Source: Eledone cirrhosa
Taxonomy: Eukaryota
NCBI GenBank assembly: GCA_964016885.1
Contig: OZ024740.1
Location: forward strand, 390,414,001-390,478,000
DNA: 64,000 bases
Direction: 5' to 3'
Positions within the stretch are counted from its first letter, which is position 1. Every line of letters starts with the position of its first letter. Of the stretch, positions 6,687 to 62,547 are shown in pieces. The translations under genes and the position numbers were made by a program. Under the pieces are notes generated by a model. It did not search any database, was not told the DNA's origin, and saw only the letters and a list, made by a program, of their open reading frames with translations.

Positions 6687-7570
6687 CATAACACAACACT
6701 ACTCGCACACAACACGCACGTACACACACACACTCAAAGTAAACATAAGTATACAGAATACAAACACACACAAATATGAATACTCATATACAAGCAGACT
6801 CAGAAACAGAAACATACAATCACACAAAAGCAGACACACATACATATACATACATAAACACAGATGCCAAAGGAATTATTTGTATCATTGTCACTATTAC
6901 GTGTGGGTCATATCACACATAACACTTCTACTTAATATTACACTATAGGTGATATTATTAGAATATCGAAGAAGTATCGAAAATTGCCACTCCTTGACCT
7001 TTTTCTCACACATGGGTGGCACGAACACGACATTTTAGCCATCTCAATGATTTATATTCCTTTCTGTATATGCTGCAGCGAAAGAAAAAAAAAGTCCAGT
7101 CCATGCTCACGCAACAGTTGTTTAGATCAAATGATGCCTGTGCTGGAAGCTTTTTTAAGTTAAGATAGGCCTTATACTGGACCTATACTATTCTGAACAA
7201 CTGTAACAGATATCCGAAAAGAAGAACAGGCCAACACCATTTGTTGCAATCGAGTCACAGGTTTTACATCAGAGTTTTTCTTCTTCTAGAATGATGTCCT
7301 AACAAGAACTAGAAATCTCTTACTCCTGGTGGACTAAGCGTGCGCTCAGACAAATAGAAATACATACATATATGCATGCATAAATATATATACATACATG
7401 CACACATACATACATACATACATGCATGCATACATACATACATGCATGCATACATACATGCATGCATACATACATACACATATATTAGGCCGTAGAGATA
7501 CATACATACATACACGGATGCATGCATACATACATCCATCCATCCATCCATCCATCCATACATACATACA

Positions 7571-7869
7571 TGGTGGCTGCCAACTCGTTTTCGAGTACGG
7601 CCACTACTTTATATCCATGTAGGAGAACCCCTACCGATGCGCTGAACGAGTGTGACTTTTTAGTCCAGCCAGCGACTTGAAAACTCTGGTACAAACACTA
7701 CACTTGTGACAATTATTGACACATAGTGCTGGGCACATGGTACCATGTGACGACAAGTGCAGAGATATCTCCAGATATAAAGCAATGCCTGTGCCGTGAA
7801 GCTTTTATAGTGAGCAAAGGCACTGCACAAAGCCAGTCCCACTCTCTTAACCAAGACGATATTTACCAA
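7571..7869 (-). mobile_element. RTE-derived non-autonomous element, 3' half; a more decayed copy at ~7085-7310
   Basis: Near-identical to 9146-9445; flanked by (CATA)n. Confidence 0.8.
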
Positions 7870-7899
7870 AATACATACATACATACATACATACATACA

Positions 7900-8782: not shown

Positions 8783-9145
8783 TAAATAATAAAGATCACA
8801 TGATTGTCCTCTCCTACCCAGTTTTCATAAACATATATTGAAAAACGAAAACTAAAATATTGGTGACAGAACAGCGATTTTGGAATATAGCGAGTGATAT
8901 CAACGATAATATTACAGTTACTATAGAACTTTGAAAGAAATAAAGACAACATGGTTATAGCAATTCTGATTTTAAAGAAAGGAAGGAAATACTGGCCATA
9001 TATAGAGGAGAGAATCTACGACCAAGCTCGCCTCAAAGCAGACCTATATATGTGATTTACAGCACATCAAATTACATTTACATAATAGAACAACATATAT
9101 ATAATGGAACAGCTGTAGTAAAAGATGACAAACATACATACATAC

Positions 9146-9749
9146 ATGGTGACTGCCAACTCGTTTTCGAGTACGGCCACTACTTTATATCCATGTAGGA
9201 GAACCCCTACCGATGCGCTGAACGAGTGTGACTTTTTAGTCCAGCCAGCGACTTGAAAACTCTGGTACAAACACCCCACTTGTGACCATTATTGACATAT
9301 AGTGCTGGGCCCATGGTACATGTGATGACAAGTGCAGAGATATCTCCAGATATAAAGCAATGCCTGTGCCGTGAAGCTTTTATAGTGAGCAAAGGCACTG
9401 CACAAAGCCAGTCCCACTCTCTTAACCAAGATGATATTTACCAAAAAGAAGAACAAGTCAACATCATTGGATACCATCAGAGTTGCAGGTGTTATATCAG
9501 AGTTTTCCTTCTCCTAGAATTCTGCCTTGACAAAGGCTAAGGGGTCATCTCTCCCTGTGATTTTGGATGGCCATTGACTCTTAAGAGCTCCTTTGCCCTT
9601 TGACAGGTCTTGTTTTTAGTCCTGCAGGATGTCCAAAGTCACCCTCCTCACCAAGAAACCTTGGTGGGGTTGCCAGTTTCGTCGCCAACGACCCGACCAT
9701 GAGCCAGGTTGTACTGGGATACATGTTACCAGTAGCACCAACTGGTGAC
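9146..9749 (-). mobile_element. ~600-bp RTE-derived non-autonomous retroelement, full copy
   Basis: RTE-like 5' UTR motif GGAGAAGGAAAACTCTGAT joined to a 3' C2H2-like remnant (VCTRVFKSLAGLKSHTRSAHR*) and an (ATGT)n tail. Confidence 0.75.
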
Positions 9750-9870
9750 ATACATACATACATGTATACGTACATAGATACATATATAAATACATGCATA
9801 CATACAAGAATACATACATGCATACATACATATATACATCCATACATACATACATATATACATATATACA

Positions 9871-9953
<83 letters not shown>

Positions 9954-11628: not shown

Positions 11629-11726
11629 CGATATAAAACTCACAAATGCATTGACGTATCTGCTGTGTTAGAGCGAAAAACCAAATCCAAATTATATATA
11701 TATATATATTTATATATATACATAAA

Positions 11727-12861
<1,135 letters not shown>

Positions 12862-13823
12862 AATAACGTGTGGCTGTCGCCGACATCTACATAATGAAAC
12901 AGACATCTTGATCACGGCTAAAATGTAAGCTACATCTGCTCTTATTGATGATATTATTGTAAGAAATACAAAACAAAAACCACAATAACGACAACAACAA
13001 CAAAAATTCAGAAATAAGAAATTTTCCTGGATGCAACAGGAAAAAAGAAAACACGAAACGAAAAAGAAAAAAGTATTATCGCTAGTTAACTTTTTGCTTC
13101 ACCACCTCAGCTGAAGATTATCTTGTATCATCCTCAACTTTCTCTTGGTCTCTTACCCCCCCCCCCCTATCTCCGCATGCCTTATTTTCCATCTGTTTAC
13201 TCTCTCTCTCTTTCACTCTCTCTCTCGCCCCCTCTCTCCTTCTCCCCTCTCTCCCTCTCTCCTCCCTCTCTCCCTCTCTCCCTCTCTCTTGCTACCAACC
13301 CCCATGAACTTGTATTCTGTCTAACAACCATACATCCTTTCTACGTACAATAAATAAATAAATAACCATATTATAAACGCACGCAGTCATGCACGTACGC
13401 GTAGAAGTACGCGTGTGCATATGCACCCACGCATGTGCACATGTACTTTAGTGAGTGCGCGTGCACACACACACAACCGTGCGACACACACACACACACA
13501 TATGTGTGTGTGTGTGTGCGTGTGTATTTGTGTGTATATATATACACCACATCTGCTCTCCAGCATGGTATCGTTCCTAAACTTTTTTTGTTTCTTATCC
13601 TTTTCTTTCTTTGCGAGACTTACTTTGATAAAATGCGAGACGTACTTACTGTTTAGCGTGAAACGTCAGACCCATCTTCTTTTTCTATTCGATGCAAATA
13701 TTTCCACACTACATATATTATTCATAATTTTGTGCATAGATTTTCTTAGCCATGTAGCTACTTTTGGCAGTTTTGCGTCACTTTATTTTAAACTCTCACA
13801 TTTCAACTTGTCTTTTTGTGACG

Positions 13824-18958: not shown

Positions 18959-19490
18959 TCTTCTTCTTCTTCTTCTTCTTCTTCTTCTTCTTCTTCTTCT
19001 TCTTCTTCTTCTTCTTCTTCTTCTTCTTCTTCTTCTTCTTCTTCTTCTTCTTCTTCTTCTTCTTCTTCTTCTTCTTCTTCTTCTTCTTCTTCTTCTTCTT
19101 CTTCTTCTTCTTCTTCTTCTTCTTCTTCTTCTTCTTCTTCTTCCTCCTGAGAGGGGTCATGGGGTAGGAGTCCCCAAATTTTCTTTCCAGCAGGTCTTGT
19201 CAGAAGCAAACGTTTCCAACTGATCCAGCTGGATCCCCATGGATGTTGGTTTTCTCCAGCCATTCTTTCCTGAGACATTCTAACCACATGCCCATATGAT
19301 CTTTCAATTCGGAGAAGTAGCGGCTCTACCTGGAGCGACTCCCTCACGCACTCCCAGGTACGATCTCAATCGAGTAACGTTTCTTCAAAGACCCTTCGGA
19401 AGGACCCCATTTCGACCGCTTGTATTCGTGATTGTATTTTTCGGTCATTACCCAAGATCCATGATCATGGGTAATGGTTTGCATTAATAC
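18959..19490 (-). mobile_element. RTE LINE 3' fragment with (GAA)n tail (18959-19142)
   Basis: RESLQVEPLLLRIERS..YGHVVRMSQERMA followed by a long GAA repeat. A related fragment lies at 31320-31445. Confidence 0.75.
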
Positions 19491-29833: not shown

Positions 29834-30027
29834 AGGGCGGTGGGTTGGCAGTATTGGTAGAGTGTCGGACGCCATGCTTTGCAGCATAGAGTTACGGCCC
29901 TTTATGATATGAGTTCAAATCTCGCGAGGTTAACTTTGCCTTTCATCCTTACGGGGTCGATAAAATAAAGCACCAGTAATACACTGGGGTAATTGCTGGC
30001 CTTGTTCCAAAAGTAGAAGCAATTATT
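29834..30027 (+). mobile_element. tRNA-derived SINE
   Basis: Family consensus. Confidence 0.85.
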
Positions 30028-30097
30028 GTAGTTATACTCCGAAGTAAGCAGACCTAGTTGTAAACTTCGTTGAGTGCTCTATTCTGCATACAATAGT

Positions 30098-30284
30098 TGT
30101 TTCTACTTTTGGCACAAGGCGAGCAATTACCCAGTGCATTACTGGTACTTTATTTTATCGACCCCGTAAGGATGAAAGGTAAAGTTAACCTCGGCGGGAT
30201 TTGAACTCAGAATGGAAAGGGCCGTAACTCTATGCGTCAAAGCACGGCGTCCGACCCTTTACCGATACTGCCAATCCACTACCC
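30098..30284 (-). mobile_element. full-length SINE with 16-bp TSD
   Basis: TSD TTCTGCATACAATAGT at 30082-30097 and 30285-30300. Confidence 0.92.
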
Positions 30285-30685
30285 TTCTGCATACAATAGT
30301 GTTGGTTGATTAACTAACATATTTTACCACCTATATTAGGCTACAAATTTCGATTATTTCTTGGGTGTTGTTTCATATTTCAAGTTGGTTAAAGATTCAC
30401 TCTCAGACTCGTCTCATTTTGTTAAACATTTCGATTAGTCGTTTTATTTTAAAGCTGTTTAAAACGTTTCGAGTTTGATCCATATGTTTTCGAGTTTGAT
30501 CCATAGTCAAAATTGTTGAAAACATAATACTCGAACACGCGTCGTGTTTACAGAAAATGTAGCATAGATGCTTATGTGTTTTGTATCAGAACGCGTTCTC
30601 TCTCAACAATCATGACATCATCTTCGCACATTTACTACTTTAGACCACTTTCACAAATTTCTTGAATTAGTGTTTAGAGTATAAT

Positions 30686-30872
30686 TTGTTCTACTTTTGG
30701 CACAAGGCCAGCAATTATCCCAGTGTATTACTGGTACTTTATTTTATCGACCCTGTAAGGATGAAAGGCAAAGTTAACCTCGACGGGATTTGAACTCAGA
30801 CCGTAAAGTGATGTAACTATGCTGGAAAGCATGGCGTCCGACCCTCTACCGATACTGCCAATTCACAGCCCT
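30686..30872 (-). mobile_element. full-length SINE with 16-bp TSD
   Basis: TSD GTGTTTAGAGTATAAT at 30670-30685 and 30873-30888. Confidence 0.92.
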
Positions 30873-31650
30873 GTGTTTAGAGTATAATATTATAATACTA
30901 GTTTATAGTAAAATTTCTTAGCCATTCATCTAGAATTTTGATCAAATTCATCGGGTTTATTATCATTGAAATATATATGTTAACTCCTTTTCAGGAATTA
31001 CAAGTAATTTTGCCCCGTGGCCAGTAAAACAGGGATTAGAGACAGAAAAAAAGATTCCAGAATATGAAACAAACAGTCACAGTCTAGCATCAAACAGAAA
31101 TTACCTAAAGTCATTTGTCATGATAAATGTCTCTTATTAATTAGTTTACCATTAATTAATTTCTTCCTTAATCTGACATTAGTTAAAATACTTTGATAGA
31201 AAACTATTTGATGTTCTGTTTTACTAGACGTGTAGTTGAATATTAAACCCCATCTGATTATAATTGCTTGAGCAGACCTATAAGCATAAATGTAATGAAT
31301 CAAACGCTTGGAAACAATTAGCGACTCTACCTGGAGCAACTCTCTGATCTTCGAGCCACGCACTCTATGGGGAACGTTGCTCCAAAAGCCCTTCGGAGGA
31401 ACCCCATTTCGACAGCTTGTATTCACATATTCTTTCGGTTATTATATGAAACTGTTGCTATTATTTGTTTCTACGTGGCTGCTCAACTGTTAAATATAAC
31501 AACTAAATTCCTTCATGCCAAAGTAAACAAATGAAAATTCACTGTGTAGTCCATGATGCATAAAAAGAACTGACGGTCATGGCCGGAATATTTTAACTCA
31601 TAGTACTGCTGAGTTAAGTTAAACAACAGCACTAGTAACATTAGTACTTA

Positions 31651-32018
31651 TTAGAGGGTACACTTAAATGTTAATCAGAGAGGAAGACGACTTCGTGTGG
31701 GTATGAAATTTGAGTTACCCGGGCCGATGTACCAGTTTCTACGATTCCGATCTACCGGCGGTGGTCTGAATGGAATCACCATATACAAAAATCAGGTAAT
31801 ATTAGTATGCATTACATAATTAGACAGGAACCGCGTCGTCAGCGAGAATTTGCCTCCCTGGACTGGAAAGTTCCGTATGACTAGCTAGTACACCATGTTA
31901 GTGGACGCAAGTGATTTAGTAGTAATCCTTAAACGTTTTGTGACGCGTGACGTCACATCAAAGGAGAAGTAAGCCAGGCGTGACCAATTTACAGGGAACC
32001 CGTGCTGGCATTGGTTCA

Positions 32019-32049
<31 letters not shown>

Positions 32050-32437
32050 TGATCATATCAGAAGCACTTTACGAGGATGTTTAGGTAGATAAAACGCAGA
32101 CCAGCAAACAAATAAATCCAACTAAAATAAACAAGGGGAGAAACTTACAATTTGAATGCAGGTTAGTCTCCTGGGAGTCAGAAATAATTATGGAACGTAG
32201 CTTATCGAATAGAATGGACACAGTTTCGGTCGTTTCCTCATTCACTCAATAATTTAATTAAGTCCGACTTATTAAAATTCGAACCTAACCGATTAGAGCG
32301 TACATTTAAACGTTAATCATTGAGGGAGACCACTTGCGTGGGTAGGAAGTTTGAGTTACCCAGACCGATGCACCAGTTTCTACGATATATATATCGTAGA
32401 AACTGGTGCATCGGTCTGGGTAACTCTCAAACTTCCT
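31651..32437 (-). mobile_element. retrozyme-like element: ~642-bp monomer, partial second unit and terminal inversion
   Basis: 31651-31745 recurs, diverged, at 32293-32385. It ends in a near-perfect palindrome at 32344-32437. Confidence 0.6.
31717..31848 (-). ncRNA. extended-stem-II hammerhead ribozyme; this copy has U16.1->C
   Basis: Minus strand: CTCG CTGACGA C GCGGTTCC [78 nt] GGAATCGT A GAA ACTGG TACA TCGGC C^CGGG. The partial copies at ~32360-32425 keep GUC. Confidence 0.6.
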
Positions 32438-32489
<52 letters not shown>

Positions 32490-32779
32490 GAGATATCCAC
32501 GGTAAGTTGTGGGGTCTAGTCAGCATGAAGAACTCAATGTAATCCATATGTTGAAAATGTTGTAGGTTAAAATAAATCCCGGAAGACAATAAAACATTAA
32601 AAGGAAAACAGAGTCATGATATAAGTTAAAACAATGAAATAAAAAATAAAGTCATTAGAAATATTTCATTTTTTTAAATTTCATTTTTTATTTCATTTTT
32701 TTATTCTTTTTATTTCATTTTATTATTTTTTTTATTTCATTGTTTTAACTTATATATATATATATATATATGAATAAAT

Positions 32780-33165
32780 TTAGTCCTTCATCAGTGATCT
32801 TCCAGCCTTCATTGGTATTTCATCGCTTTAAAGACCATCCATAAACCTCCGGTTGGTGCGAGCAACGGCTAAAGAAAGTAAATAGAAAGACACGTAAATA
32901 GGGGGAACGAGCAAGACAGTAAACAATCAAAGATGGTAATGCAACGAAAAGTGAGGAAGAAGGAGTCAAGTCCCTGAAATCGATGAACATAAGTTCTGTG
33001 AAATCGTGGACGAGAGAGAATAAAGACCATCCAACCTGGTCGAAATGTGAGTAAGGAAAGAATTTCGCACAGATCAAACGGGAGGAAGAAGGAGTCAAGT
33101 CCCTGAAATCGATGAACATAAGTTCTGTGAAATCGTAGGAGAGAACTTATGTTCATCGATTTCAG
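32780..33165. repeat. PLE-like fragment with a ~55-bp direct repeat and short terminal inversion
   Basis: ~32953-33006 repeats at ~33083-33136; inverted at 33142-33165. A truncated minus-strand CTGATGAAGGAC lies at ~32785-32793. Confidence 0.45.
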
Positions 33166-34320
33166 TTACGGCTCTTTGCGTTCTGAGTTCAAATCCCGCC
33201 GAGGTTAGTTTTGCCTTTTATCCTTACGGATTCGAAAAAAAAAGACCAGTACGTACTGGGGTAGATTTAAAGTCCCCCCCCCCCCAATAAAAAAATTATT
33301 GACTTTGTGCCTAAATTAGAGACCATTACTTCTTTTCTTCCTTTATATATTTCCCTCTCATCAAAATCTGACACCATCCTGTCCCTTCATTTACAAGCGT
33401 TTTCTCTCTCCATACTTCGATAACGCATTCTTGGGTCTCCAATAATCATTCCCCTCCACACTTATTAATTTTTCAGACCCCCCCCCCCCCCCCCCCTTCC
33501 CCTGCTCTTATTCTAATCTATCTCTGGCAAAATGTTGTTTTAAGTGGTAGCATTTCTGCGACACTTAATTTTCTTTATACATTTAAAAAACACTTTATAC
33601 ATGACAAGCAGTGTCGGTAGAGGGTCGGACGCCATGCTTTCCAGCATAGTTACGCCCCTTTACGGTCTGAGTTCAATCCCGCCGAGGTTATCTTTGCCTT
33701 TCATCCTTACGGGGTTGATAAAATAAAGTACCAGTAATACACTGGGATAATTGCTGTCCTTGTGCCAAAAGTAGAACAAATTATTAGAAATCCATACGTT
33801 ATAAAATAAATAGGATGGGCTGGAGGTCTCAATATGTAAACTAAACGACTAATTCTGGTTTTTAAAAAATGAACGGAGACAACCTAGAAAAATTACCAAT
33901 TTTCAAAAATCTCCCCCGCCTCGCTTATTCCAACACTACCGTTTACTTCAAATCCCATTCCTCCCTCTTATTCGAACCCCCGCCCCGCTTATTCCGACGC
34001 TACCGTTTACTCCAAATCCCCTCCCTCCCTCTTATTCCAACCCCCGCCCCGCTTATTCCAAGCCCCTTATTATTTGGGACCTGAGAATACAGAAATGTAT
34101 CCATCTCTCCATCGCTCTCTTTCTAGCTTGTCTATTTGGCGGTTTGGCTGTATCGGTAGAGCGTCAGACACCAGGCTTTGCAGCATAGAGTTATGGCCCT
34201 TTGCGTTCTGAGTTCAAATCCGCCGAGGTTAACTTTGCCTTTCATCCTTACGAGGTCGATAAAATAAAGTACCAGTGATGCACTGGAGTATTCGCTGGCC
34301 TTCTGCCAAAAGTAGAAACT
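33165..34320 (+). mobile_element. three SINE copies (~33165-33330, ~33610-33785, ~34138-34320)
   Basis: Each matches the family consensus. Confidence 0.8.
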
Positions 34321-34527
34321 CTATTTTCTCACTCTGTACACCTCAATTATTTTATCGTGTTACCTCTCTAATACCCGCCCCTTCTTTACCTCTTTTCTCT
34401 TCTATTCACGCTATCACTTCCTCTTTCTCTCATTCTCTTACTCCTCTCTATATATCACTATCTGTTCACCTGACTGCCCGCCTAGATCAGTTGCTGGGTG
34501 ACTGTTGGCCATTTCTTTTTCTTTCTA

Positions 34528-34602
<75 letters not shown>

Positions 34603-34722
34603 TCTCTCTCTCTATGTCTTCCCCAAATCAGTCAACCGTTCATCTATCTATTTATCCTTCATGTTCATATTTATATATAACACATTCTTCCTTTCTCTTC
34701 CGGCTGTATCAGCACAGACACT

Positions 34723-34796
<74 letters not shown>

Positions 34797-35018
34797 TCTA
34801 CAAACATACATCATAAATGAAAGAGAGAAACTAGGAGAAAAAAGAAAGAAAAAATCCTAGAAAAAGGACACGTGACTTGACCTTTTATATTAGTGATAAG
34901 TATACAATGAAAATTACGTAATAGACCACAGAGCGTATGAATAGATTAGCCCCACACAAGTACATGATTTTGTCTTCGTTTTACATGTGTGTGTGAGTGA
35001 GTGTGTGTGTGTGTGTGT

Positions 35019-35067
<49 letters not shown>

Positions 35068-35546
35068 CGCGCGCGCGCGCCGCAGCCAACGTGTTGCAGC
35101 ACTTGTGACAAGTAAGTGGAAGCATACGAATAAACTAACGACAATTGTTCATATTTTTCATAATGTACGGAATATGTTACAAACATTCCCAGGACAACAA
35201 GCCACTATATAGCACAGTACTCCTACGTAACGTTTACAATTATGGTCATCCATACTTTTTCCGTTGTTGACCAGTTATAACATCGTATTTTTCGTCCTAG
35301 TAACTCCCTACTTTCATTTCTGACAAATATTTCTTTCTCGTATGTAACGTAAATGCCTAACTATAGTATGTATGTATGTATGTATGTATGTATGTATGTA
35401 TGTATGTATGTATGTATGTATATGTATGTATGTATGTATGTACGTATAGTAAAGAGCTGTGCAATGTACTTAGTAATCTAATTTCGCAGCACACACGCAC
35501 ATACAGACGAACACACACAAAGACGCACGCACACACTCACAGACAC

Positions 35547-35664
<118 letters not shown>

Positions 35665-35749
35665 AAAAATTGAACGGGAACAAAACAGAGAGGCAGTACG
35701 AACAAAGGTTTATTAGTTTCACGCGCTTGAGAGTGGAGTGGTGGTGGGG

Positions 35750-35783
35750 AACGACGTTTCGGGCATAAGCCCTTCTTCAGGTG
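35750..35783 (-). ncRNA. minimal hammerhead ribozyme with weak stem I
   Basis: Minus strand: AC CTGAAGA A GGGC TTAT GCCC GAA ACGT C^GT. Confidence 0.6.
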
Positions 35784-37309
35784 AAAAGTGTGTGGAAAGA
35801 GAGTTCCAAGGGTGTGTAGGGGAGTGGTGGAGAGACGTATAGAAAAAAGGGGGTGAGAGGAAACGGTACAAATGAAATTAAATATAAAAGCATGATAAAA
35901 ATAAAAATAAAAATACACATGATGTAAAACAGGTGGTGGAAGGGTGTGGGCGTGTAGGGGTGATGGCGGGTGGAGTGGGGAGAGGGAGGCGGGGTGTCGG
36001 AGCGGGGACGGCTGAAGGTGGTGTGTGTGTGTAGGTGTACGTGTGTGTGTGTATGTGAAAGTAAGAGTTGGGGGAAGAACGGGGTTGCATGTTCAGGAAG
36101 AGGTGTGTGTGGGGTGGGGTGTAGGTCGGAGTGTGTGTGCGTGTGTGAATAGAGGGGTGGGGGGAGAGGATTCCGGAGGCTGAATGTGTAAATATGTGGT
36201 GGTACGCACGTGTGTGTGTGGTGTTTATGCGTGTTGTGGATGTAGGTGGCATGTGGGGAAAAAAAATTTGTTTTGGGTGTATGTCAGTGGGTGAGTCCTT
36301 AAGGTAGTTCCGTAGACGATGTGGTGGAATGCTGAGTATTATCCTTGGGATGTGGTGGATTCTAGGGATCGATGTTCACATATGTGTAATCCGTGAAGAG
36401 ATTGGTCGGAAGAGGGGAGATGTGGGGTGCGCGCGCAACAAGAAGTGGTCAGAGGGTCAAGGCAGGAGGAGGGTTGTGTGTCTGTGTGTGCGGGGAGGTG
36501 GTCAGAGATAAGGGCATAGCAGCAGTAGGGTAGAATGGTAAGTGAAGAAAGTCGGTGTGTCAGTGTGTGCGGAGGTGCGGTGGACAGGGGAGAGGATGGG
36601 TAGGTGTGAAAGTTGGAGTAAGGAGGGGGGGTGTGTGTATTAGTAGAGGTGTTAGTGGGATGTGTGTGTGTGTGAGAAAGGGTGTGGGTGGAGCGGGGAG
36701 AGAAGGGTGTGGGGGCCGATGGAGGGAGTGTAGTGTACTGGTGTGTGTGTGCGTGTTTGGATGAGTGTGTGTGTGGTGAAGGGGGTGTTAGTGGGTGTTA
36801 GTAAACTGGAGGTGGAGAAAGGGTTGAATGCGAGTGTGAGTGGGGGTCAGTGGTGGTAGGGTGTGTAGAGTGGGTGGTGTAAGAGGGTGTGTGTGTTCGT
36901 GTGCGTAGGGTTGGAGGGTGTTAGTGATGTTAGTTGCGTGTAGAGTGGGTGGTGTAAGTGGGTGTGTGTGTTCGTGTGCTTGGGGTCGGGGGTGTTAGTG
37001 ATGTTAGTTGCGGGGTGGTGGGGTGGATGTGTGGGGGTGAGGGTTAGTGGTGGTAGTAGGGTGTGTGTTTAGTGTGAGCGCATGTATATATGTACCGGTG
37101 GGTGTGCGCGTGTGATAAGGAGGGGGGGAGAAGAAGGGAGGGTTGTTAGTATGTTAGTTGGGGAAGGGTGGTCGGGTGTGGGGTGGAGGTGTTAGTATTG
37201 TTAGTTGTGAGGTGGGCGGTGAAAAGGAGGGGTGTGTTAGTGGTGTTAGTGGGGGATATGTGTGGGGGGAGGGGGGCGGTCGAAGGCTAAAGGAATAAGG
37301 GTGGGGAGT

Positions 37310-37739: not shown

Positions 37740-38893
<1,154 letters not shown>

Positions 38894-39864: not shown

Positions 39865-40275
39865 TAACATTCTCGGTATTTTTCTATATATTTACCCCAT
39901 ATTGTTTTACTTATTGTTTCGACTTCCTCCCCCTCCCTAGTATACTTCCTTGACTTCCTGCCCTGCTGTAGTTGGCACTATCAACGCACGACTGGGTTTC
40001 CTCCACCCCCTCTTCCTTTTTCTTCTACTGGCAGGTTCAACTACCCCCCCCCCCCCCCTTCCACAAATTGCCATGATAGAATTATGTGTCTCAACAACAA
40101 ACTTTTGACCAATCCTTGTGACAATCACTTTTACCATATATGGAATTACCCCCTGAGAAGCTCGGCTATTCATATAACAGGATAAACATTTTCATTTAGT
40201 CCAGAATTAGCCGTCGAAACGGCTTGAGCTCAGCCGTCGGGGTCCTACTCGTTCCTATATATATATATATATATA

Positions 40276-43200
40276 TTAGAAAGATCGAGTATCGAAAAAT
40301 CGGCGCACGAGTTAACGAAAAACGAAATCCGATATGAGCGGCAGAGGGCTCAATAATTCAGATGAATCAGAGCTATAACTATCGTTAAAATACCGTCACA
40401 TATAGAACAAGTCTACAATCAACCATACGATTTAAAATCGATAAAGGAAGATTCGGGCCAAACAGATAAAAAATATCAATAAAACAATACGTCAATAATT
40501 TAAATGAATGTAAAATCATACCCGGACCCACTAGAAAGGTGTTAAATCTAGCTTCATGGGTTTCTGTAAATCCTTAGACAGTACTCTATCAGCTCACATA
40601 TAAATATAAAAGCCTACTAGAATAAGTGGAATGGAGTTTACGTTGTCAACGAGTTTTATCCTGGCGGCAAAGGAGTCAACTAGCGGTGAAAAACGCACAT
40701 GGCATTAGACAAGGGAGATGACCCCTATATCCGCGAAAATAATTCGAGTGAATGTGGAAATACACATATCGAATTAGAGTGCTCAATAGACATGTTAAAA
40801 TAAAACAAAAGCTATTCATCACTCAATAGAATCGACAAAATATGAGCAATAAAATTAACTGGTGGATAGCTATGTCCAGAGCTAAATATATTAGAAAGAT
40901 CGAGTATCGAAAAATCGGCGCACGAGTTAACGAAAAACGAAATCCGATATGAGCGGCAGAGGGCTCAATAATTCAGATGAATCAGAGCTATAACTATCGT
41001 TAAAATACCGTCACATATAGAACAAGTCTACAATCAACCATACGATTTAAAATCGATAAAGGAAGATTCGGGCCAAACAGATAAAAAATATCAATAAAAC
41101 AATACGTCAATAATTTAAATGAATGTAAAATCATACCCGGACCCACTAGAAAGGTGTTAAATCTAGCTTCATGGGTTTCTGTAAATCCTTAGACAGTACT
41201 CTATCAGCTCACATATAAATATAAAAGCCTACTAGAATAAGTGGAATGGAGTTTACGTTGTCAACGAGTTTTATCCTGGCGGCAAAGGAGTCAACTAGCG
41301 GTGAAAAACGCACATGGCATTAGACAAGGGAGATGACCCCTATATCCGCGAAAATAATTCGAGTGAATGTGGAAATACACATATCGAATTAGAGTGCTCA
41401 ATAGACATGTTAAAATAAAACAAAAGCTATTCATCACTCAATAGAATCGACAAAATATGAGCAATAAAATTAACTGGTGGATAGCTATGTCCAGAGCTAA
41501 ATATATTAGAAAGATCGAGTATCGAAAAATCGGCGCACGAGTTAACGAAAAACGAAATCCGATATGAGCGGCAGAGGGCTCAATAATTCAGATGAATCAG
41601 AGCTATAACTATCGTTAAAATACCGTCACATATAGAACAAGTCTACAATCAACCATACGGTTTAAAATCGATAAAGGAAGATTCGGGCCAAACAGATAAA
41701 AAATATCAATAAAACAATACGTCAATAATTTAAATGAATGTAAAATCATACCCGGACCCACTAGAAAGGTGTTAAATCTAGCTTCATGGGTTTCTGTAAA
41801 TCCTTAGACAGTACTCTATCAGCTCACATATAAATATAAAAGCCTACTAGAATAAGTGGAATGGAGTTTACGTTGTCAACGAGTTTTATCCTGGCGGCAA
41901 AGGAGTCAACTAGCGGTGAAAAACGCACATGGCATTAGACAAGGGAGATGACCCCTATATCCGCGAAAATAATTCGAGTGAATGTGGAAATACACATATC
42001 GAATTAGAGTGCTCAATAGACATGTTAAAATAAAACAAAAGCTATTCATCACTCAATAGAATCGACAAAATATGAGCAATAAAATTAACTGGTGGATAGC
42101 TATGTCCAGAGCTAAATATATTAGAAAGATCGAGTATCGAAAAATCGGCGCACGAGTTAACGAAAAACGAAATCCGATATGAGCGGCAGAGGGCTCAATA
42201 ATTCAGATGAATCAGAGCTATAACTATCGTTAAAATACCGTCACATATAGAACAAGTCTACAATCAACCATACGATTTAAAATCGATAAAGGAAGATTCG
42301 GGCCAAACAGATAAAAAATATCAATAAAACAATACGTCAATAATTTAAATGAATGTAAAATCATACCCGGACCCACTAGAAAGGTGTTAAATCTAGCTTC
42401 ATGGGTTTCTGTAAATCCTTAGACAGTACTCTATCAGCTCACATATAAATATAAAAGCCTACTAGAATAAGTGGAATGGAGTTTACGTTGTCAACGAGTT
42501 TTATCCTGGCGGCAAAGGAGTCAACTAGCGGTGAAAAACGCACATGGCATTAGACAAGGGAGATGACCCCTATATCCGCGAAAATAATTCGAGTGAATGT
42601 GGAAATACACATATCGAATTAGAGTGCTCAATAGACATGTTAAAATAAAACAAAAGCTATTCATCACTCAATAGAATCGACAAAATATGAGCAATAAAAT
42701 TAACTGGTGGATAGCTATGTCCAGAGCTAAATATATTAGAAAGATCGAGTATCGAAAAATCGGCGCACGAGTTAACGAAAAACGAAATCCGATATGAGCG
42801 GCAGAGGGCTCAATAATTCAGATGAATCAGAGCTATAACTATCGTTAAAATACCGTCACATATAGAACAAGTCTACAATCAACCATACGATTTAAAATCG
42901 ATAAAGGAAGATTCGGGCCAAACAGATAAAAAATATCAATAAAACAATACGTCAATAATTTAAATGAATGTAAAATCATACCCGGACCCACTAGAAAGGT
43001 GTTAAATCTAGCTTCATGGGTTTCTGTAAATCCTTAGACAGTACTCTATCAGCTCACATATAAATATAAAAGCCTACTAGAATAAGTGGAATGGAGTTTA
43101 CGTTGTCAACGAGTTTTATCCTGGCGGCAAAGGAGTCAACTAGCGGTGAAAAACGCACATGGCATTAGACAAGGGAGATGACCCCTATATCCGCGAAAAT

Positions 43201-45231
43201 AATTCGAGTGAATGTGGAAATACACATATCGAATTAGAGTGCTCAATAGACATGTTAAAATAAAACAAAAGCTATTCATCACTCAATAGAATCGACAAAA
43301 TATGAGCAATAAAATTAACTGGTGGATAGCTATGTCCAGAGCTAAATATATTAGAAAGATCGAGTATCGAAAAATCGGCGCACGAGTTAACGAAAAACGA
43401 AATCCGATATGAGCGGCAGAGGGCTCAATAATTCAGATGAATCAGAGCTATAACTATCGTTAAAATACCGTCACATATAGAACAAGTCTACAATCAACCA
43501 TACGATTTAAAATCGATAAAGGAAGATTCGGGCCAAACAGATAAAAAATATCAATAAAACAATACGTCAATAATTTAAATGAATGTAAAATCATACCCGG
43601 ACCCACTAGAAAGGTGTTAAATCTAGCTTCATGGGTTTCTGTAAATCCTTAGACAGTACTCTATCAGCTCACATATAAATATAAAAGCCTACTAGAATAA
43701 GTGGAATGGAGTTTACGTTGTCAACGAGTTTTATCCTGGCGGCAAAGGAGTCAACTAGCGGTGAAAAACGCACATGGCATTAGACAAGGGAGATGACCCC
43801 TATATCCGCGAAAATAATTCGAGTGAATGTGGAAATACACATATCGAATTAGAGTGCTCAATAGACATGTTAAAATAAAACAAAAGCTATTCATCACTCA
43901 ATAGAATCGACAAAATATGAGCAATAAAATTAACTGGTGGATAGCTATGTCCAGAGCTAAATATATTAGAAAGATCGAGTATCGAAAAATCGGCGCACGA
44001 GTTAACGAAAAACGAAATCCGATATGAGCGGCAGAGGGCTCAATAATTCAGATGAATCAGAGCTATAACTATCGTTAAAATACCGTCACATATAGAACAA
44101 GTCTACAATCAACCATACGATTTAAAATCGATAAAGGAAGATTCGGGCCAAACAGATAAAAAATATCAATAAAACAATACGTCAATAATTTAAATGAATG
44201 TAAAATCATACCCGGACCCACTAGAAAGGTGTTAAATCTAGCTTCATGGGTTTCTGTAAATCCTTAGACAGTACTCTATCAGCTCACATATAAATATAAA
44301 AGCCTACTAGAATAAGTGGAATGGAGTTTACGTTGTCAACGAGTTTTATCCTGGCGGCAAAGGAGTCAACTAGCGGTGAAAAACGCACATGGCATTAGAC
44401 AAGGGAGATGACCCCTATATCCGCGAAAATAATTCGAGTGAATGTGGAAATACACATATCGAATTAGAGTGCTCAATAGACATGTTAAAATAAAACAAAA
44501 GCTATTCATCACTCAATAGAATCGACAAAATATGAGCAATAAAATTAACTGGTGGATAGCTATGTCCAGAGCTAAATATATTAGAAAGATCGAGTATCGA
44601 AAAATCGGCGCACGAGTTAACGAAAAACGAAATCCGATATGAGCGGCAGAGGGCTCAATAATTCAGATGAATCAGAGCTATAACTATCGTTAAAATACCG
44701 TCACATATAGAACAAGTCTACAATCAACCATACGATTTAAAATCGATAAAGGAAGATTCGGGCCAAACAGATAAAAAATATCAATAAAACAATACGTCAA
44801 TAATTTAAATGAATGTAAAATCATACCCGGACCCACTAGAAAGGTGTTAAATCTAGCTTCATGGGTTTCTGTAAATCCTTAGACAGTACTCTATCAGCTC
44901 ACATATAAATATAAAAGCCTACTAGAATAAGTGGAATGGAGTTTACGTTGTCAACGAGTTTTATCCTGGCGGCAAAGGAGTCAACTAGCGGTGAAAAACG
45001 CACATGGCATTAGACAAGGGAGATGACCCCTATATCCGCGAAAATAATTCGAGTGAATGTGGAAATACACATATCGAATTAGAGTGCTCAATAGACATGT
45101 TAAAATAAAACAAAAGCTATTCATCACTCAATAGAATCGACAAAATATGAGCAATAAAATTAACTGGTGGATAGCTATGTCCAGAGCTAAATATATTAGA
45201 AAGATCGAGTATCGAAAAATCGGCGCACGAG

Positions 45232-45234
<3 letters not shown>
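40276..45234 (-). repeat. tandem array of 8 full 615-bp units plus a ~39-bp partial unit, retrozyme-like
   Basis: Unit starts at 40276, 40891, 41506, 42121, 42736, 43351, 43966, 44581 and 45196. Units are nearly identical (one A->G noticed at 41660). (TA)n on both sides. Confidence 0.97.
40520..40654 (-). ncRNA. variant hammerhead ribozyme (U3-A8 core, extended stem II), repeated every 615 bp through 44825-44959
   Basis: Minus strand: ACTCG TTGACAA C GTAAA(C)TCC [59 nt] GGATTTAC A GAA ACCCA..CTAGA..TCTAG TGGGT C^CGGGT. Confidence 0.65.
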
Positions 45235-47079: not shown

Positions 47080-47610
47080 AAGAGGCGGTGTTTCTGTGCG
47101 TGATAGCCATGGCGAAAGAGGTTGTATGGTGGACGCGTCTGAAAGGACTGGGGTCAGACCCCTTTCTCTCTGGCCAACAACTGGTCCGTTTCTTCCAATA
47201 TCATTTCGGAAGAAGGATCAGGATGGAGAGAGAGGGGCTGCACCCCAGCCGTTTTTATGAAAGATGGGTGAAAGTGGCGAGAATGGCCCGTGTGAATGGG
47301 CCTTCACTCTACATCAGACTGTAGGTGAGAAAGATGAAAGATCAAGGGAGCACCCTCTCTCTGTACTCCTGAGGAGAAGGGTTGCACACTTTTTTTTGGG
47401 GGGGGGGGGGAGGGGGTGCGACTCCTCAAGGCGCCTCCTCCCTATTGAGGATTTTGTTATTCAATTTATTTTTGTTATATTTTATATTTTTATATTTTTA
47501 TATTTTGTTATTGCCTCCTCCTTATTGAGGACGCCTTTTTATGTAAACTCCCCCCATTGTACTTGTCCCACTTTTTGATGCCCTGGTGGCAAATAAAAAG
47601 AAAGTTATCT
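47080..47610 (+). mobile_element. Tx1/L1-like LINE 3' fragment
   Basis: AVFLCVIAMAKEVVWWTRLKGL...FYERWVKVARMARVNGPSLYIRL*; homologous to 27215-27660. Confidence 0.7.
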
Positions 47611-47686
47611 ATGTATGTATCTGAATCTATGTATCTATGTATGTGTGTGTGTGTATGTATGTATGTACGTATGTATGTATATATGT

Positions 47687-49134
47687 CGGGTCACCAGTTG
47701 GTGCTACTGGTAACATGTATCCCAGTACAACCTGTCTCATGGTCGGGTCGTTGGCGACTAAACTGGCAACCCCACCAAGGTTTCTTGGTGAGGAGGGTGA
47801 CTTTGGACATCCTGCAGGACTAAAAACAAAACCTGTCAAAGGGCAAAGGAGCTCTTAAGAGTCAATGGCCATCCAAAATCACCGGGAGAGATAACCCCTT
47901 AGCCTTTGTCAAGACAGAATAATAGGAGAAGGAAAACTCTGATATAACACCTGCAACTCTGATGGTATCCAATGATGTTGACTTGTTCTTCTTTTTGGTA
48001 AATATCATCTTGGTTAAGAGAGTGGGACTGGCTTTGTGCAGTGCCTTTGCTCACTATAAAAGCTTCACAGCACAGGCATTGTTTTATATCTGGAGATCTC
48101 TCTGCACCTGTCATCACATGGTACCATGGGCCCAACACTATGTGTCAATAATTGTCACAAGTGTAATGTTTGTACCAGAGTTTTCAAGTCACTGGCTGGA
48201 CTAAACAGTCACACTCGTTCAGCGCATCGGTAGGGGTTCTCCTACATGGATATAAAGTAGTGGCCGTACTCGAAAACGAGTTGGCAGCCACCATGTATGT
48301 ATCTATGTATGTATATATGTATATATGTACGTATGTATGTATGTATGTATGTATGTATGTATGTATGTATGTATGTATGTATGTATGTATGTATGTATGT
48401 ATGCATGTATGTATGTATGAATTTATGTATGTATATATGTATGTACACATGCGTACGTATATATATATATGTATGTATCTATGTATGTATCTATGTATGT
48501 ATCTATGTATGTAAATATGTATGTATGTATGTATGTGTGTGTATGTATGTACGTAACATGTATCCCAGTACAACCTGTCTCATGGTCGGGTCGTTGACGA
48601 CTAAACTGGCAACCCCACCAAGGTTTCTTGGTGAGGAGGGTGACTTTGGACATCCTACAGGACTAAAAACAAAACCTGTCAAAGGGCAAAAGAGCTCTTA
48701 AGAGTCAATGGCCATCCAAAATCACCGGGAGAGATGACCCCTTAGCCTTTGTCAAGGCAGAATTCTAGAAGGAAAACTCTGATATAACACCTGCAACCCT
48801 GATGGTATCCAATGATGTTGACTTGTTCTTCTTTTTGGTAAATATCATCTTGGTTAAGAGAGTGGGACTGGCTTTGTGCAGTGCCTTTGCTCACTATAAA
48901 AGCTTCACGGCACCGGCATTGCTTTATATCTGGAGATCTCTCTGCACTTGTCGTCACATGGTACCATGGGCCCACCACTATGTGTCAGTAATTGTCACAA
49001 GTGTAGTGTTTGTACCAGAGTTTTCAAGTCGCTGGCTGGACTAAAAAGTCACACCCGTTCAGCGCATCGGTAGGGGTTCTCCTACATGGATATAAAGTAG
49101 TGACCGTACACGAAAACGAGTTGGCAGCCACCAT
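47687..49134 (+). mobile_element. two tandem ~600-bp RTE-derived elements (47687-48294, 48553-49134) separated by (ATGT)n
   Basis: Near-identical to the reverse complement of 9146-9749. Confidence 0.8.
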
Positions 49135-49137
49135 GTG

Positions 49138-49171
<34 letters not shown>

Positions 49172-49255
49172 TGTATGTATGTATGTATGTATGTATGTAT
49201 ATGTATGTATGTATATATGTCTGTACACACATGCGTACGTACGTATGTATGTATG

Positions 49256-49289
<34 letters not shown>

Positions 49290-50065
49290 TGTATGTATGT
49301 ATGTATGTATGTATGTATGTATGTATGTATGTGCGTATGTGTGTATGTATGTATGTATGTACGTATGTATGTGTATGTATGTGTGTTTGTGTCTGTATAT
49401 AAGTTTTCTACTCAACTATGTATGATATTAGTAGATGGAAATTGGTGGCCTTGTGCCTAGATAAAATATCAATACAGCAGTGGCTGTTGTATAGCCAGGT
49501 TTTAATGTAATAGAAGTCTTCTTATTATTGACCCCCATGTTAGCACTTATTCAGTAGACCTATGGTCAAGGACCTTCCAGACGATAGCGACCCCTTTTTT
49601 GTATATTCTGGACTTTTTTTTAAAGGTGTTATCCAAAGGCTACGATTTCTAGAAAGTCGAGTTACTGTCTGGAGCTTACTTCTTTGGTGTTTTAAATAAT
49701 TGTTGTTGTTGTTGTTGTTGTTTAGTCCCAGGTTAGCCTTGGTTGGGCAGTCCTATGATCGATGATATTTCATCTGTGACCATCCTGTCATTTTTTTATT
49801 TTGTAGGAGGGGCTCAAAAATTAGTTGTAGTGCACCCGAGCACTGTACACAATAATAATAATAATTATGTTTTATTAGCAATATTACAGAACCCTTTTTT
49901 TAAAAGATGATGGAGGGTGAAAGAGAGATTTAGTTGTAATGTCTAACAGATCGAGTGACCGTGTTACGGATTTCTCTTTCATTCGTGTAATAGGAGTACT
50001 AGTAATAGTAGTGGCAATCGTTGGAGGTTATCGTTAAATGTGATTTGGTAGTGAAGACGTCTCGC

Positions 50066-53914: not shown

Positions 53915-54717
53915 ATAATAAATGAAAAATTAGAAATAGAAGCCAGGAATATCCGTCATCAGTGGTCTACTAGCCTTCATAGGTATTTCTTCGCATTACA
54001 GACCATATACCTGAAGCTGTGGTCTGTAATGCGAAGAAATGATGGCTAGTAGACCACGGATGACAGATATTCCTGGCTTCTATTTCTAATTCTTCATTTA
54101 TTATATATATCCTATTTGCAACAACACAGCTCGCCATTTTTCATTCATATGTGCCTTCCCCTTCGCTGTGACCTGTCTTTTTCTCTTCCCTTACCGCTAT
54201 CCTCTTTTTCTCTTCCCCTTCTCTCTCCTTCTCCCTCTTACTTTTACTCACTCCCTCTGCTAGTCACCCTCTCTCGGCTAGCCTCTTCCTCACACTTTCA
54301 CTCACTCACTCTCTGCTACTCACCATCTCTCTCACTTTCTCCATCGTCCCACACCGTACGAGATTCTTTCGTCGCTCACATCCGCACGGCCAAGATGTGT
54401 CTTTGCCTTCTCGTCAATATTCACAGGTTCTTATGTTCGAAATGAATCATTGATTTGATTTTCTCATTTTTTCCTCTCTTTACGTTGCCTCACCATTCGT
54501 GTTTGTTTACCTGGCTCTCTTTCTCCACCCAACTCTTTTTATCCCGATAACTTAATTTAGTTATTGTATCACCCTAGCTTCAGGTATATGGTCTGTAATG
54601 CGAAGAAATACCTATGATGGCTAGTAGACCACTGATGACGGATATTCCTGGCTTCTATTTCTAATTCTTCATTTATTATATATATCATATTTGCAACAAC
54701 ACAGCTCGCCATTTTTC

Positions 54718-54720
<3 letters not shown>
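53912..54720. mobile_element. PLE-like element with direct terminal repeats and an inverted 5' copy
   Basis: ~54020-54145 repeats at ~54588-54720; 53915-54018 is the inverse of ~54576-54680. Inserted in (TA)n. Confidence 0.65.
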
Positions 54721-54783
<63 letters not shown>

Positions 54784-60529: not shown

Positions 60530-61853
60530 ACGGATTGTACTTGTAATTTCCTAACTAGTTGTGTTCTTCCTGTTCCTGTGAAGCCTAGCTACTCAAGATT
60601 TGTATTGAGACAGTTACTAACATACCCCAGTGCCCCAATAACCACAATAATCTGAAGGTGTAATCAGGGTGGAATATCTGCAGATTTCTCACCAGTTCTG
60701 CATAAATATTCTCCTTTTCGCTAATCTTTGATATTATATTGGCATCTGCTGGGCAGCTAATTTCCACTACAGTGCATGCTTTCTTCTCCCTGTCCCATAT
60801 CATAATATCTGGTCCGTTATGCCTGCATTTTATTGGGGTTTTTACTGGAACATTCCACCAGTACTCTTTCATATTATGTACGTGAATATCTTCCACATTG
60901 CTGTAGCTTTTAATGTGTTTATTTTTTTTGTTTATTTGTTTTTTTGTATGTATGTATGTATGTATGTATGTATGTATGTATGTATGTATGTATGTTCTTC
61001 TGGTTTTATAATTTCACAAAGTTTTACCAATAGAGAGAGAGTCGGTTTCTAACCTAGACACAAGACTCTCATTGGAATTTACACAACATCAACAAGGTAG
61101 ATATGTATGTATGTCTGCATGCATGCATGTATAGATTTGGATGTTATTGTATGTGTGGATGTGTATGTTTTGAGTTGTATGTGTGCATGTGTATATGCTT
61201 TGTATCTGTACATGTGTATATGCAGTTATTAGATGCAAAATGTTTGGAATGTTTTACATATTTTCACTGTTCCATTAATGGATTGTACTTGTAGTATCCT
61301 AACTAGTTGTGTTCTTTCTATTCCTGTGAAGCCTAGCTACTCAAGATTTTTATTGAGGCAGTTACTAACATATCCTAGTGCCCCAACAATCACAGGCATA
61401 AATCTGAAGGTGTAATCAGGGTGGAGTATCTGCAGATTTTCTCATCAGTTCTGCATAAATATTCTCCTTTTCACTAATCTTTGATATTATATTGGCATCT
61501 GCTGGGCAGCTAATTTCCACTACTGTGCATGTTTTCTTCTCCCTGTCCCATATCATAATATCTGGTCTGTTATGCCTGCATTTTATTGGGGTTTTTACTG
61601 GAACATTACACCAGTACTCTTTCATATTATGTACATGGATGTCTTCCACACTGTGGTAGCTTTTAATGTGTTTATTATCGGGGCTATCTTTTTTACGAAC
61701 TGCATTGTACAGTGTTTTGGCCACTACATCATGCCTCATAGGTAGATAGTACCGCGATGACATCTTTGGACAGCTGCTGATGACATGAGTGATATCCTCG
61801 ATGTTAGTTCTGCAGAGTCTGCACTTGTTATCACATCTAGGTGTTTTGCCTGC

Positions 61854-61855
<2 letters not shown>
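60530..61855 (-). mobile_element. two tandem R4/Dong-like RLE fragments (~60530-60925 and ~61278-61855)
   Basis: MSSRYYLPMRHD..KCRHNRPDIMIWD..VVEISCP..EKENIY; homologous to 1-690. Confidence 0.85.
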
Positions 61856-61884
<29 letters not shown>

Positions 61885-61910
61885 TGTATGTATGTATGTA
61901 TGTATGTATG

Positions 61911-62442
61911 TTAGGTTGCTCTCGAGTGCTACTGGTAACATGTAACCCAGTATAACCTGTCATATGGTCGGGTCGTCGACGAGTAAACCGGCAACCCCAC
62001 AAAGCTTGCTTGGCGAGGAGGGTGATATTTGGATATCTGCAGGATGAAATACAAGACCCGGCAAAGGGCGGAGTAACTCAGCAGAGCCAACGGCCATCCA
62101 AATAGTATTGTATTTTCTCACCTGGGAGTGGAAGGCCCCCAGTTGTTGTCACAACACCTTTCTAAGAGAGGGAAACTCTGAAGAAAAAAAAAAAAAAGAC
62201 CTGCGGCTTCAGAAGCATCCGATGATGTTGACCAGTTCTCCTTTTCGGGTAGTGTTTTCGAGGCTCAGAGAGTGGGATTGGTCGAGTGCAACGCCTTTCC
62301 CCACTTAAAAAACCTTCAAGCACAGGCATTGCCTGTTCAGGATCTGTTACAGGTTCGTGTGGCTGGCCGTAGCCTAAAGGTGCATTATTTTCTGTAATCT
62401 GACAAGCGATTGCAATACTCTTAACAGAGTTTGCAGTCATCA
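61911..62442 (+). mobile_element. divergent subfamily of the RTE-derived non-autonomous element
   Basis: Shares GTGCTACTGGTAACATGTA..GGTCGGGTCG..GGCAACCCCAC..GAGGAGGGTGA with the main family; different 3' end. Confidence 0.7.
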
Positions 62443-62547
62443 TGTATATGTGTATGTAAGTATGCATATATGTGTGTCTGTATGTATGTATGAATGTATG
62501 TATACATATATGTATACATATATGTACGAGTATACATATACTTATGT

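Follow-up and report, generated by a model that had tools for sequence, protein, structure and literature searches.

Hammerhead ribozymes of Penelope elements have the consensus CUGANGAH-G...C-GAAA (Cervera and de la Pena 2014; PMC4209133), and the text of that study describes a U3–A8 pair, an extra base between positions 9 and 10.1, a G10.1–C11.1 pair, a long helix II and a palindromic loop III. Non-LTR retrozymes were defined by Cervera and de la Pena (2020; PMC7229834), who noted a basal U.U in helix II, and a preprint by Li, Clavereau and Pollet (2026) describes retrozyme units of 51–972 bp with a Penelope origin and reports cleavage in only one of nine predicted retrozyme dimers. Penelope-like elements have been described that form partial tandems, carry inverted copies and target (TA)n (Craig et al. 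2021; PMC8557442). Internal starts of reverse transcription, an uncut template and protein-assisted cleavage have been reported by Frangieh et al. (2024; PMC11167929), and in the same work mutations in the ribozyme made no difference to in vitro insertion by an anole Penelope protein. A study of natural core variants describes U3–A8 covariation and tolerated core insertions, and ranks G10.1–C11.1, which stacks on G12, as the most conserved helix pair after A15.1–U16.1 (Perreault et al. 2011; PMC3088659). In the giant squid, 235 Rfam hammerhead loci have been counted (PMC6962438).

Here we analyse a hammerhead-like motif on the minus strand of a 64-kb window (the whole stretch of DNA studied), which an earlier note had read as a variant hammerhead supported by covariation with a 615-bp unit in the same window. 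The feature is real and that reading is broadly right, its covariation and kinship claims being overstated. The locus at 31651–32386 is best read as a decayed copy of a non-autonomous element. We consider it probable that this copy, which has mutated, belongs to a retrozyme-like, protein-free repeat present in many copies and bearing a variant type I hammerhead motif, and that a Penelope-like reverse transcriptase (RT) and endonuclease likely inserted it, as has been proposed for animal retrozymes.

Architecture of the motif

A sequence check placed every element of the claimed minus-strand motif where the earlier note had put it (Table 1). The core follows YUGANRA with a 3–8 pair and is accompanied by GAAA, in the full copy (CUGACGA) as in the 615-bp unit (UUGACAA), and the full copy has complementarity for three helices of 4, 8 and 4 bp, with low predicted pairing. 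The 10.1–11.1 pair is G.U in the full copy and G–C in the 615-bp unit. The A15.1–U16.1 pair and NUH triplet expected of a type I hammerhead are lacking in the full copy, which has GCC, and are present in the partial copies and most homologues, and an extra A separates 11.1 from G12 in both families, so that G10.1–C11.1 does not lie directly beside G12. The full copy therefore falls outside the type I hammerheads on its triplet, and both families do so on their 11.1–G12 junction. The letters of the 'C.A' proposed at the base of stem II are present in both families, but they would be better described as two features, the C corresponding to the published extra base H after A9 and the A before G12 being an additional, unreported base. 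The internal GATTCC that had been named as a competitor for stem II is also present, with a predicted pairing (0.06–0.67) that depends on the boundaries. Inspection by eye recognised no tertiary contact between loop 1 of helix I and loop 2 of helix II.

Table 1. Positions of the features discussed, numbered along the window
Feature	Position	Strand	Details
Type I hammerhead-like motif, full copy	31718–31846	minus	predicted cut between 31722 and 31721
Stem I, 5′ strand CUCG (CTCG in DNA)	31846–31843	minus	
Core CUGACGA	31842–31836	minus	
Extra C, after core	31835	minus	
Stem II, 5′ arm	31834–31827	minus	GCGGTTCC (= GCGGUUCC), 8 bp
Helix II insert	31826–31749	minus	78 nt
GAUUCC, competitor for stem II 3′ arm	31772–31777	minus	sequence and fold prediction
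Stem II, 3′ arm	31748–31741	minus	GGAATCGT (= GGAAUCGU)
Extra A, before G12	31740	minus	
GAAA	31739–31736	minus	
Stem III, CUGG/UCGG	31735–31732 and 31727–31724	minus	4 bp
Stem III with loop	31724–31735	minus	loop UACA in full copy, palindromic UGCA in partial copies (predicted dimer helix)
Position 16.1	31723	minus	C in full copy (GCC triplet), U in most homologues
Stem I, 3′ strand CGGG	31721–31718	minus	
Element body	31651–32386	minus	5′-truncated partial unit, then one 641–642-nt unit; from alignment and read depth
Element 3′ end at TCTAAT	31655–31650	minus	
A26 tract (U26 on ribozyme strand)	32024–32049	plus	unit is 615 nt without the tract
Single-copy segment	32053–32138		depth 4.5–5.5 (X1), 7.5–9.2 (X2); not common to the other family members aligned
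Highest-copy segment	32182–32310	minus	depth 661–1832 (X1), 715–2523 (X2)
Direct partial copy	32292–32386	minus	ribozyme 3′ half: GAAA at 32380, GUC, UGGG
Inverted partial copy	32393–32437	plus	GAAA at 32399; ends at TTCCT against (TA)n
(TA)n tract, probable insertion target	32438–32483		on the 5′ side of the element only
615-bp array	40268–45234	minus	8 units and about 45 nt; flanked on both sides by (TA)n
Motif of each 615-bp unit	within 40268–45234	minus	UUGACAA-C-G...C-A-GAAA...GUC-CGGG
5′-truncated Penelope-like element	37909–38890	plus	(TA)n on both sides; GIY-YIG remnant with core, inverted end and (TA)n at 37948–38790
GIY-YIG frame with upstream CxxC	37948–38349	plus	Pfam E 0.00047, below curated cut-off; atlas score 0.95
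Hammerhead core CTGAAGA...GAAA of GIY-YIG remnant	at 38596	plus	about 250 nt after stop codon
Inverted copy of the remnant's 3′ end	about 37967–38015		
Third family, inverted half-hammerhead pairs at (TA)n	11693–11962, 12283–12544, 12626–12865, 40197–40260		
Short Penelope-type hammerhead cores	14089, 59019, 35780, 10138	minus	

To assess specificity, we used a descriptor that was written after the motif had been seen and that allowed C at 16.1. In its strict form it matched nine times in the window (the eight array units and 31846–31718) and 23 times in 1,927 shuffled windows; with the C...A feature added, the nine matches stood against none in the shuffled windows. A loose form gave 180 matches in the 1,927 shuffled windows, and a first, smaller run of 12 shuffles had given two loose and no strict matches. 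No hammerhead was among the 150 of 302 Rfam matches listed for the whole window, and neither motif alone matched a hammerhead family at E values up to 10. The collection scans covered viral and metagenome sequences. The half-pattern scan of viral sequences returned 43 loci, none of them with all stems (0/43; chance matches), and the full-pattern scan returned no viral loci and four metagenome loci, none of the four with stems II and III. Beyond the sequences used to train it, a covariance model built from the two motifs matched only the partial copies (E 0.002 and 0.3) and weak candidates at E values of at least 0.5, two or three of which fall on third-family half-ribozymes.

Organization of the element

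The body of the element is a partial unit followed by one complete unit (Table 1). The direct partial copy, truncated 6 nt upstream of G12, is identical to the full copy at 82 of 97 aligned bases and is spaced 641–642 nt from it. The direct and inverted partial copies form the arms of one perfect 37-bp palindrome (32353–32426) and therefore represent one event, not two. Both keep GUC, as had been claimed. This combination of a partial tandem, an inverted 5′-truncated copy and a (TA)n target, together with the 3′-biased depth described below, supports a Penelope-like insertion.

Six-frame analysis of 31651–32392 revealed no coding trace and no reading frame of note, and the RT and GIY-YIG frames of an autonomous Penelope-like element are absent. 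The GC content of 31651–32386 is 0.39, and the locus resembles a non-LTR retrozyme in having no protein and a GC content below 50%. By the two-unit definition of Li et al. it does not qualify as a retrozyme, as it has one complete motif; the 615-bp array does.

A multi-copy family with a GUC triplet

Genomic homologues were viewed through two contig sets (X1 and X2), which come from one sample that may be the source of the assembly, and through two RAD runs from other samples. Three of the six sequencing runs surveyed, all from one sample, contain the stretch. The reads show a multi-copy family. Depth here is summed contig depth and not copy number, and 32011–32060 was skipped as a repeat. Against a flank depth of 6.2–6.5 (X1) and 9.5–9.8 (X2), the ribozyme 5′ half reached 90–98 and 135–138 (about 14–16 times single-copy), the 3′ half (31709–31751) 346 and 434 (44–56 times), 31666–31708 901 and 1,093 (111–145 times) and 32225–32267 1,832 and 2,523 (257–295 times), respectively, with a drop to near single-copy below about 31650. 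Along the permuted unit, depth falls away from a 3′ end near 32184, which is probably the commonest 3′ end of the family, as expected for 5′-truncated retro-insertions; the exception is a rise at 31924–32009, which may come from another repeat. The segment at 32053–32138 is single-copy, and a family-wide 642-nt circle is therefore not supported: the proposed ~642-bp monomer holds as the 641–642-nt spacing of full and partial copies and lacks support as a unit common to the family.

The majority letter is carried by 17–22 contigs at 31793 and by 31–39 at 31723, in keeping with a dispersed multi-copy repeat. U at 16.1 accounts for 278.5 of 322.1 in depth in X1 (31 contigs) and 343.8 of 390.3 in X2 (39 contigs), about 87%, and for every RAD read (8/8 and 10/10, 18/18 in total). 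Contig depth and RAD reads thus identify the GCC of the full copy, which had been noticed earlier, as a private change from a family state of GUC. A palindromic UGCA in loop III (31730) is likewise found in 260.6 of 332.8 (X1), 308.2 of 400 (X2) and 5/10 and 7/12 RAD reads, and at one position of the helix II insert the majority letter replaces a predicted G.U by A–U. The core, the extra C and the extra A show no variant among the 40 of 324 variant rows listed, which suggests that, so far as these rows go, they are the majority state in the family.

Copies differ in layout. One 529-nt contig (record 3) runs from 31877 to 31659 with 33 differences and continues with 32284–32184, and others have joints skipping 239–440 nt or a 513-nt spacing (record 2). 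Joints from 32273–32318 to 31659–31695 were considered as tandem junctions and dropped; they show only that 32293–32184 comes after TCTAAT in other copies.

Comparison with the 615-bp array

The 615-bp array shows a single internal difference among its eight units and is therefore recent; it appears to be a younger family with the same variant core. An unguided alignment sets its motif in register with that of the full copy. Across the 17 pairs compared, 33 of 34 cells are paired: five pairs are changed on both sides (3–8, three in stem II and one in stem III), five on one side, six are invariant and one is unpaired in the 615 motif. Stems II and III thus differ yet still pair, positions 3 and 8 switch together (C3–G8 in the full copy, U3–A8 in the 615-bp unit) and the stem I letters CTCG/CGGG are common to both families, all as the earlier note had observed. 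The comparison is suggestive only and does not amount to the covariation proof that it had drawn: two sequences are involved, the structure scored was derived from those same two sequences and, although slid controls fall short, 14 of 500 shuffles reach the pairing score.

Flanking similarity, which the earlier note had also put forward, is not significant against shuffles or real window segments. The flanking blocks that it cited are visible in both units, yet upstream alignments at five lengths from 40 to 150 nt were equalled by 189, 79, 398, 477 and 722 of 2,000 shuffles and by 527 of 5,560 real window segments, downstream alignments by 501 and 472 of 2,000 shuffles, and the helix II insert alignment by 403 of 2,000. 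The best local alignment between units scored 33, against 38 ± 6 for shuffles. The whole-unit alignment was matched by 5 of 300 shuffles with the ribozyme included and by 29 of 300 over the first 400 nt. For the 3′ part of the partial copy against the third family the shuffle count was 13 of 2,000 (107 of 2,000 for the full copy), so that this part is at least as like the third family, which has no extra A before GAAA, as it is like the 615-bp unit.

The layout said to be shared agrees in the 3′ ends, which lie at TCTAAT in both, but not in the rest: the 615-bp array, with its eight units and a remainder of about 45 nt, is bounded by (TA)n at either end, whereas here (TA)n stands on the 5′ side only. 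Softer links are the TCTAAT end, a U-rich ribozyme strand and a length of 641 minus 26, or 615, nt. Common ancestry of the two families, probably as distant relatives, is plausible.

Predicted folding

In the full copy, predicted pairing was 0–0.31 for stem I, 0–0.16 for stem III and 0.26–0.87 for stem II, and forcing the hammerhead fold cost 4.3–15.8 kcal/mol. Fold z was +0.84, against −1.47 for the 615 motif, whose stems were predicted at 0.75–0.99 in a 137-nt fold; in a 244-nt fold its stems I and III fell to 0 and 0.14. The two units folded as circles gave z = −1.71 and −3.44 (25 shuffles). The full copy's own predicted fold disfavours the active form, and this copy, with GCC and a lost loop palindrome, is probably inactive. 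Intact family copies are predicted to cut their own RNA. The stem III 12-mer of the partial copies is self-complementary, with a self-duplex at −16.3 kcal/mol (−5.9 for the full copy), and forms no hairpin alone, which points to cleavage as dimers.

Two further ideas were set aside. Cutting of the upstream partial copy's GUC by the 5′ half lies 8.9 kcal/mol above the best two-strand fold and has probability 0 in the whole-locus fold, and an extended stem I seen by eye differs between constrained folds and is not claimed.

Penelope-related sequences in the window

The window consists of AT-rich eukaryotic DNA with many microsatellites and a 190-bp repeat. It contains a GIY-YIG remnant (Table 1) that had no match in an NCBIfam search and that, judged from its domain order, would belong to a Neptune-like element; the ribozyme strand is A-rich in its 3′ region and U-rich at 31651–32386. 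Third-family pieces have GAAA, stem III with a palindromic loop, GUC and GGGG, with no 5′ half in the window, and one of them shares its TA tract with the 615-bp array. Truncation lies no more than about 30 nt upstream of GAAA in four third-family insertions and in the partial copy at 32386–32292. Five inverted or TA-abutting ends terminate in TTCCT, 18–21 nt past the cleavage site; one of the five has an earlier TTCCT at 8 nt and its TA-abutting TTCCT at 18.

In three of the short cores (14089, 59019 and 35780), A9 is followed by an additional A and the 15–16 region is palindromic. Segments at 53915–54150 and 54576–54725, duplicated in inverted and direct orientation with a CTGATGA half-core, lie between (TA)n tracts. 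A repeat some 800 bp long, with (TACA)n on its flanks, occurs at 7360–7871, 9128–9948, 47606–49382 (in tandem) and 61855–63226, and the descriptor found no full hammerhead in it. The minus-strand segment 45262–45380, which ends at (TA)n beside the 615-bp array, has GTATTGAGTAC in common with the third family and is possibly the 3′ end of another element. A very abundant repeat fragment at 31316–31424 (also 19315–19427) reaches a depth of 30,000–36,000, against 6–10 in its flanks. On the minus strand, 640–1209 is a DDE transposase remnant (Pfam E 0.00094) and 60585–61013 with 61416–61910 a duplicated zf-RVT-like retrotransposon remnant (E 0.018), all below curated cut-offs.

Origin of the locus

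A Penelope-driven origin would proceed as follows. RNA would be read from the minus strand, and cleavage of intact copies would follow GUC, probably in dimers held together by the self-complementary stem III. AT-rich DNA would prime reverse transcription, which would begin at a small number of internal sites, pass a cleavage site left uncut or re-ligated, and often halt at the long helix II, a short way upstream of GAAA; the inverted copy would come from a second primer. A rare product that went once round the unit could have given the 1.15-unit copy at 31651–32386, which would later have decayed, losing U16.1 and the loop palindrome. Against this explanation stand the poor predicted fold, the one complete motif, the single-copy 32053–32138 segment, the non-significant kinship with the 615-bp unit outside the ribozyme, the low rate of cleavage among the dimers of Li et al. 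(one of nine) and the lack of an Rfam match.

Several of these observations would also fit a different origin, in which an autonomous Penelope-like element supplied the sequence as its 3′ terminal repeat (pseudo-LTR), the locus consists of two truncated insertions and a copy-specific spacer, and 642 bp is a spacing with no circular monomer. The steep 3′ bias in depth, the single-copy segment, the skipping joints with the 513-nt spacing, and the hammerhead core that follows the stop codon of the GIY-YIG remnant all favour such an arrangement. We nevertheless rate it unlikely, given six frames without a coding trace, a ribozyme strand of opposite base bias in that remnant, the occurrence of the same variant core in a true eight-unit array, and the agreement of unit lengths once the A26 tract is removed.

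The extra A before G12 raises the further question of whether the variant core cleaves in either family or was disabled by this base, leaving the fold as a binding or priming signal for a Penelope protein, or as a passenger. The strong conservation of G10.1–C11.1 on G12 and the indifference of anole Penelope insertion to ribozyme mutants, both cited above, agree with a non-cleaving core, as does the complete absence of the ribozyme 5′ half from many copies. However, the letters of the catalytic core persist in full across two very different contexts with a two-sided 3–8 change, most of the family has GUC, the 615 motif readily adopts its helices in the 137-nt fold, and active ribozymes tolerate a basal U.U mismatch in helix II (PMC7229834, PMC3088659); we regard a non-cleaving core as quite unlikely. 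A chance match, its likeness to the 615-bp motif arising from looking for it, would agree with the non-significant flanks, the post hoc descriptor and the poor fold, but is largely refuted and most improbable given the C...A descriptor's lack of matches in 1,927 shuffled windows, homologues that restore GUC and the loop palindrome, and the position of the motif within an element with Penelope insertion marks.

With the mutated retrozyme-like copy as the preferred reading, a wider proposal can be made tentatively, as a possibility that we put somewhat below even chances: at least two long-diverged, Penelope-mobilised retrozyme families would share an active hammerhead subtype that neither Rfam nor standard descriptors pick up, in which a C.A opposition separates helix II from the A9–G12 pair, helix II is extended by 65–80 nt and both C3–G8 and U3–A8 are used. 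If so, the long helix II would be the usual stopping point of RT.

Penelope elements and retrozymes are familiar carriers of hammerheads, and the full copy is probably dead, so that the locus alone is of modest interest; its value lies in showing the same odd core a second time, in a divergent sequence. Should natural copies with GUC prove to cleave, helix II would be less strictly bound to stack directly on G12 through G10.1–C11.1 than descriptors assume, and genome surveys would miss whole families. The common truncation point before GAAA and the other common end, about 20 nt past the cleavage site, offer clues to how Penelope proteins copy ribozyme-bearing RNAs.

Comparison with known systems

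Both the extra base after A9, in Penelope hammerheads, and U3–A8 are already published. New relative to the literature text, and not found in print, is the extra A before G12 combined with the 78-nt helix II insert: the literature text searched mentions no A at the 11.1–G12 junction, which figures and some supplements beyond that text may show. The axolotl HHR_Amex2 and the variants of PMC3088659 resemble the present core in U3–A8 covariation, core insertions and a tolerated U.U at the base of helix II, whereas the text of that paper lists no variant with an A placed between 11.1 and G12 and facing an extra C.

The pseudo-LTR hammerheads of Penelope elements, as described in PMC4209133, are likewise type I, with an extra H after A9 followed by G10.1, a helix II of 7–8 bp, a helix I of 4–5 bp, a palindromic loop III, a U3–A8 variant and motif pairs on opposite strands. 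By contrast, the family of 31846–31718 has an extra A between 11.1 and G12, U11.1, a 4-bp stem III and a 78-nt helix II insert instead of a short loop, and its 642-nt unit lacks the RT and endonuclease frames of the Penelope elements in that study.

Animal non-LTR retrozymes, as presented in PMC7229834 and by Li et al. (2026), are similarly protein-free, with a GC content under 50%, a type I hammerhead per unit, monomers and multimers, and co-occurrence with Penelope elements. The 642-nt unit lies inside the 51–972-bp range of Li et al. but is longer than the 150–450-bp units of classical retrozymes, with non-canonical core flanks, and 31651–32386 differs further in having one complete motif.

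Unlike the Neptune and Naiad (PMC8557442) and anole Poseidon (PMC11167929) elements, 31651–32386 is non-coding, a candidate C-terminal GIY-YIG remnant with upstream CxxC lying 5.5 kb away. With these elements, as far as those accounts describe them, it shares a partial tandem, an inverted 5′-truncated copy, a microsatellite target, more than one 3′ end and copying through an uncut ribozyme site.
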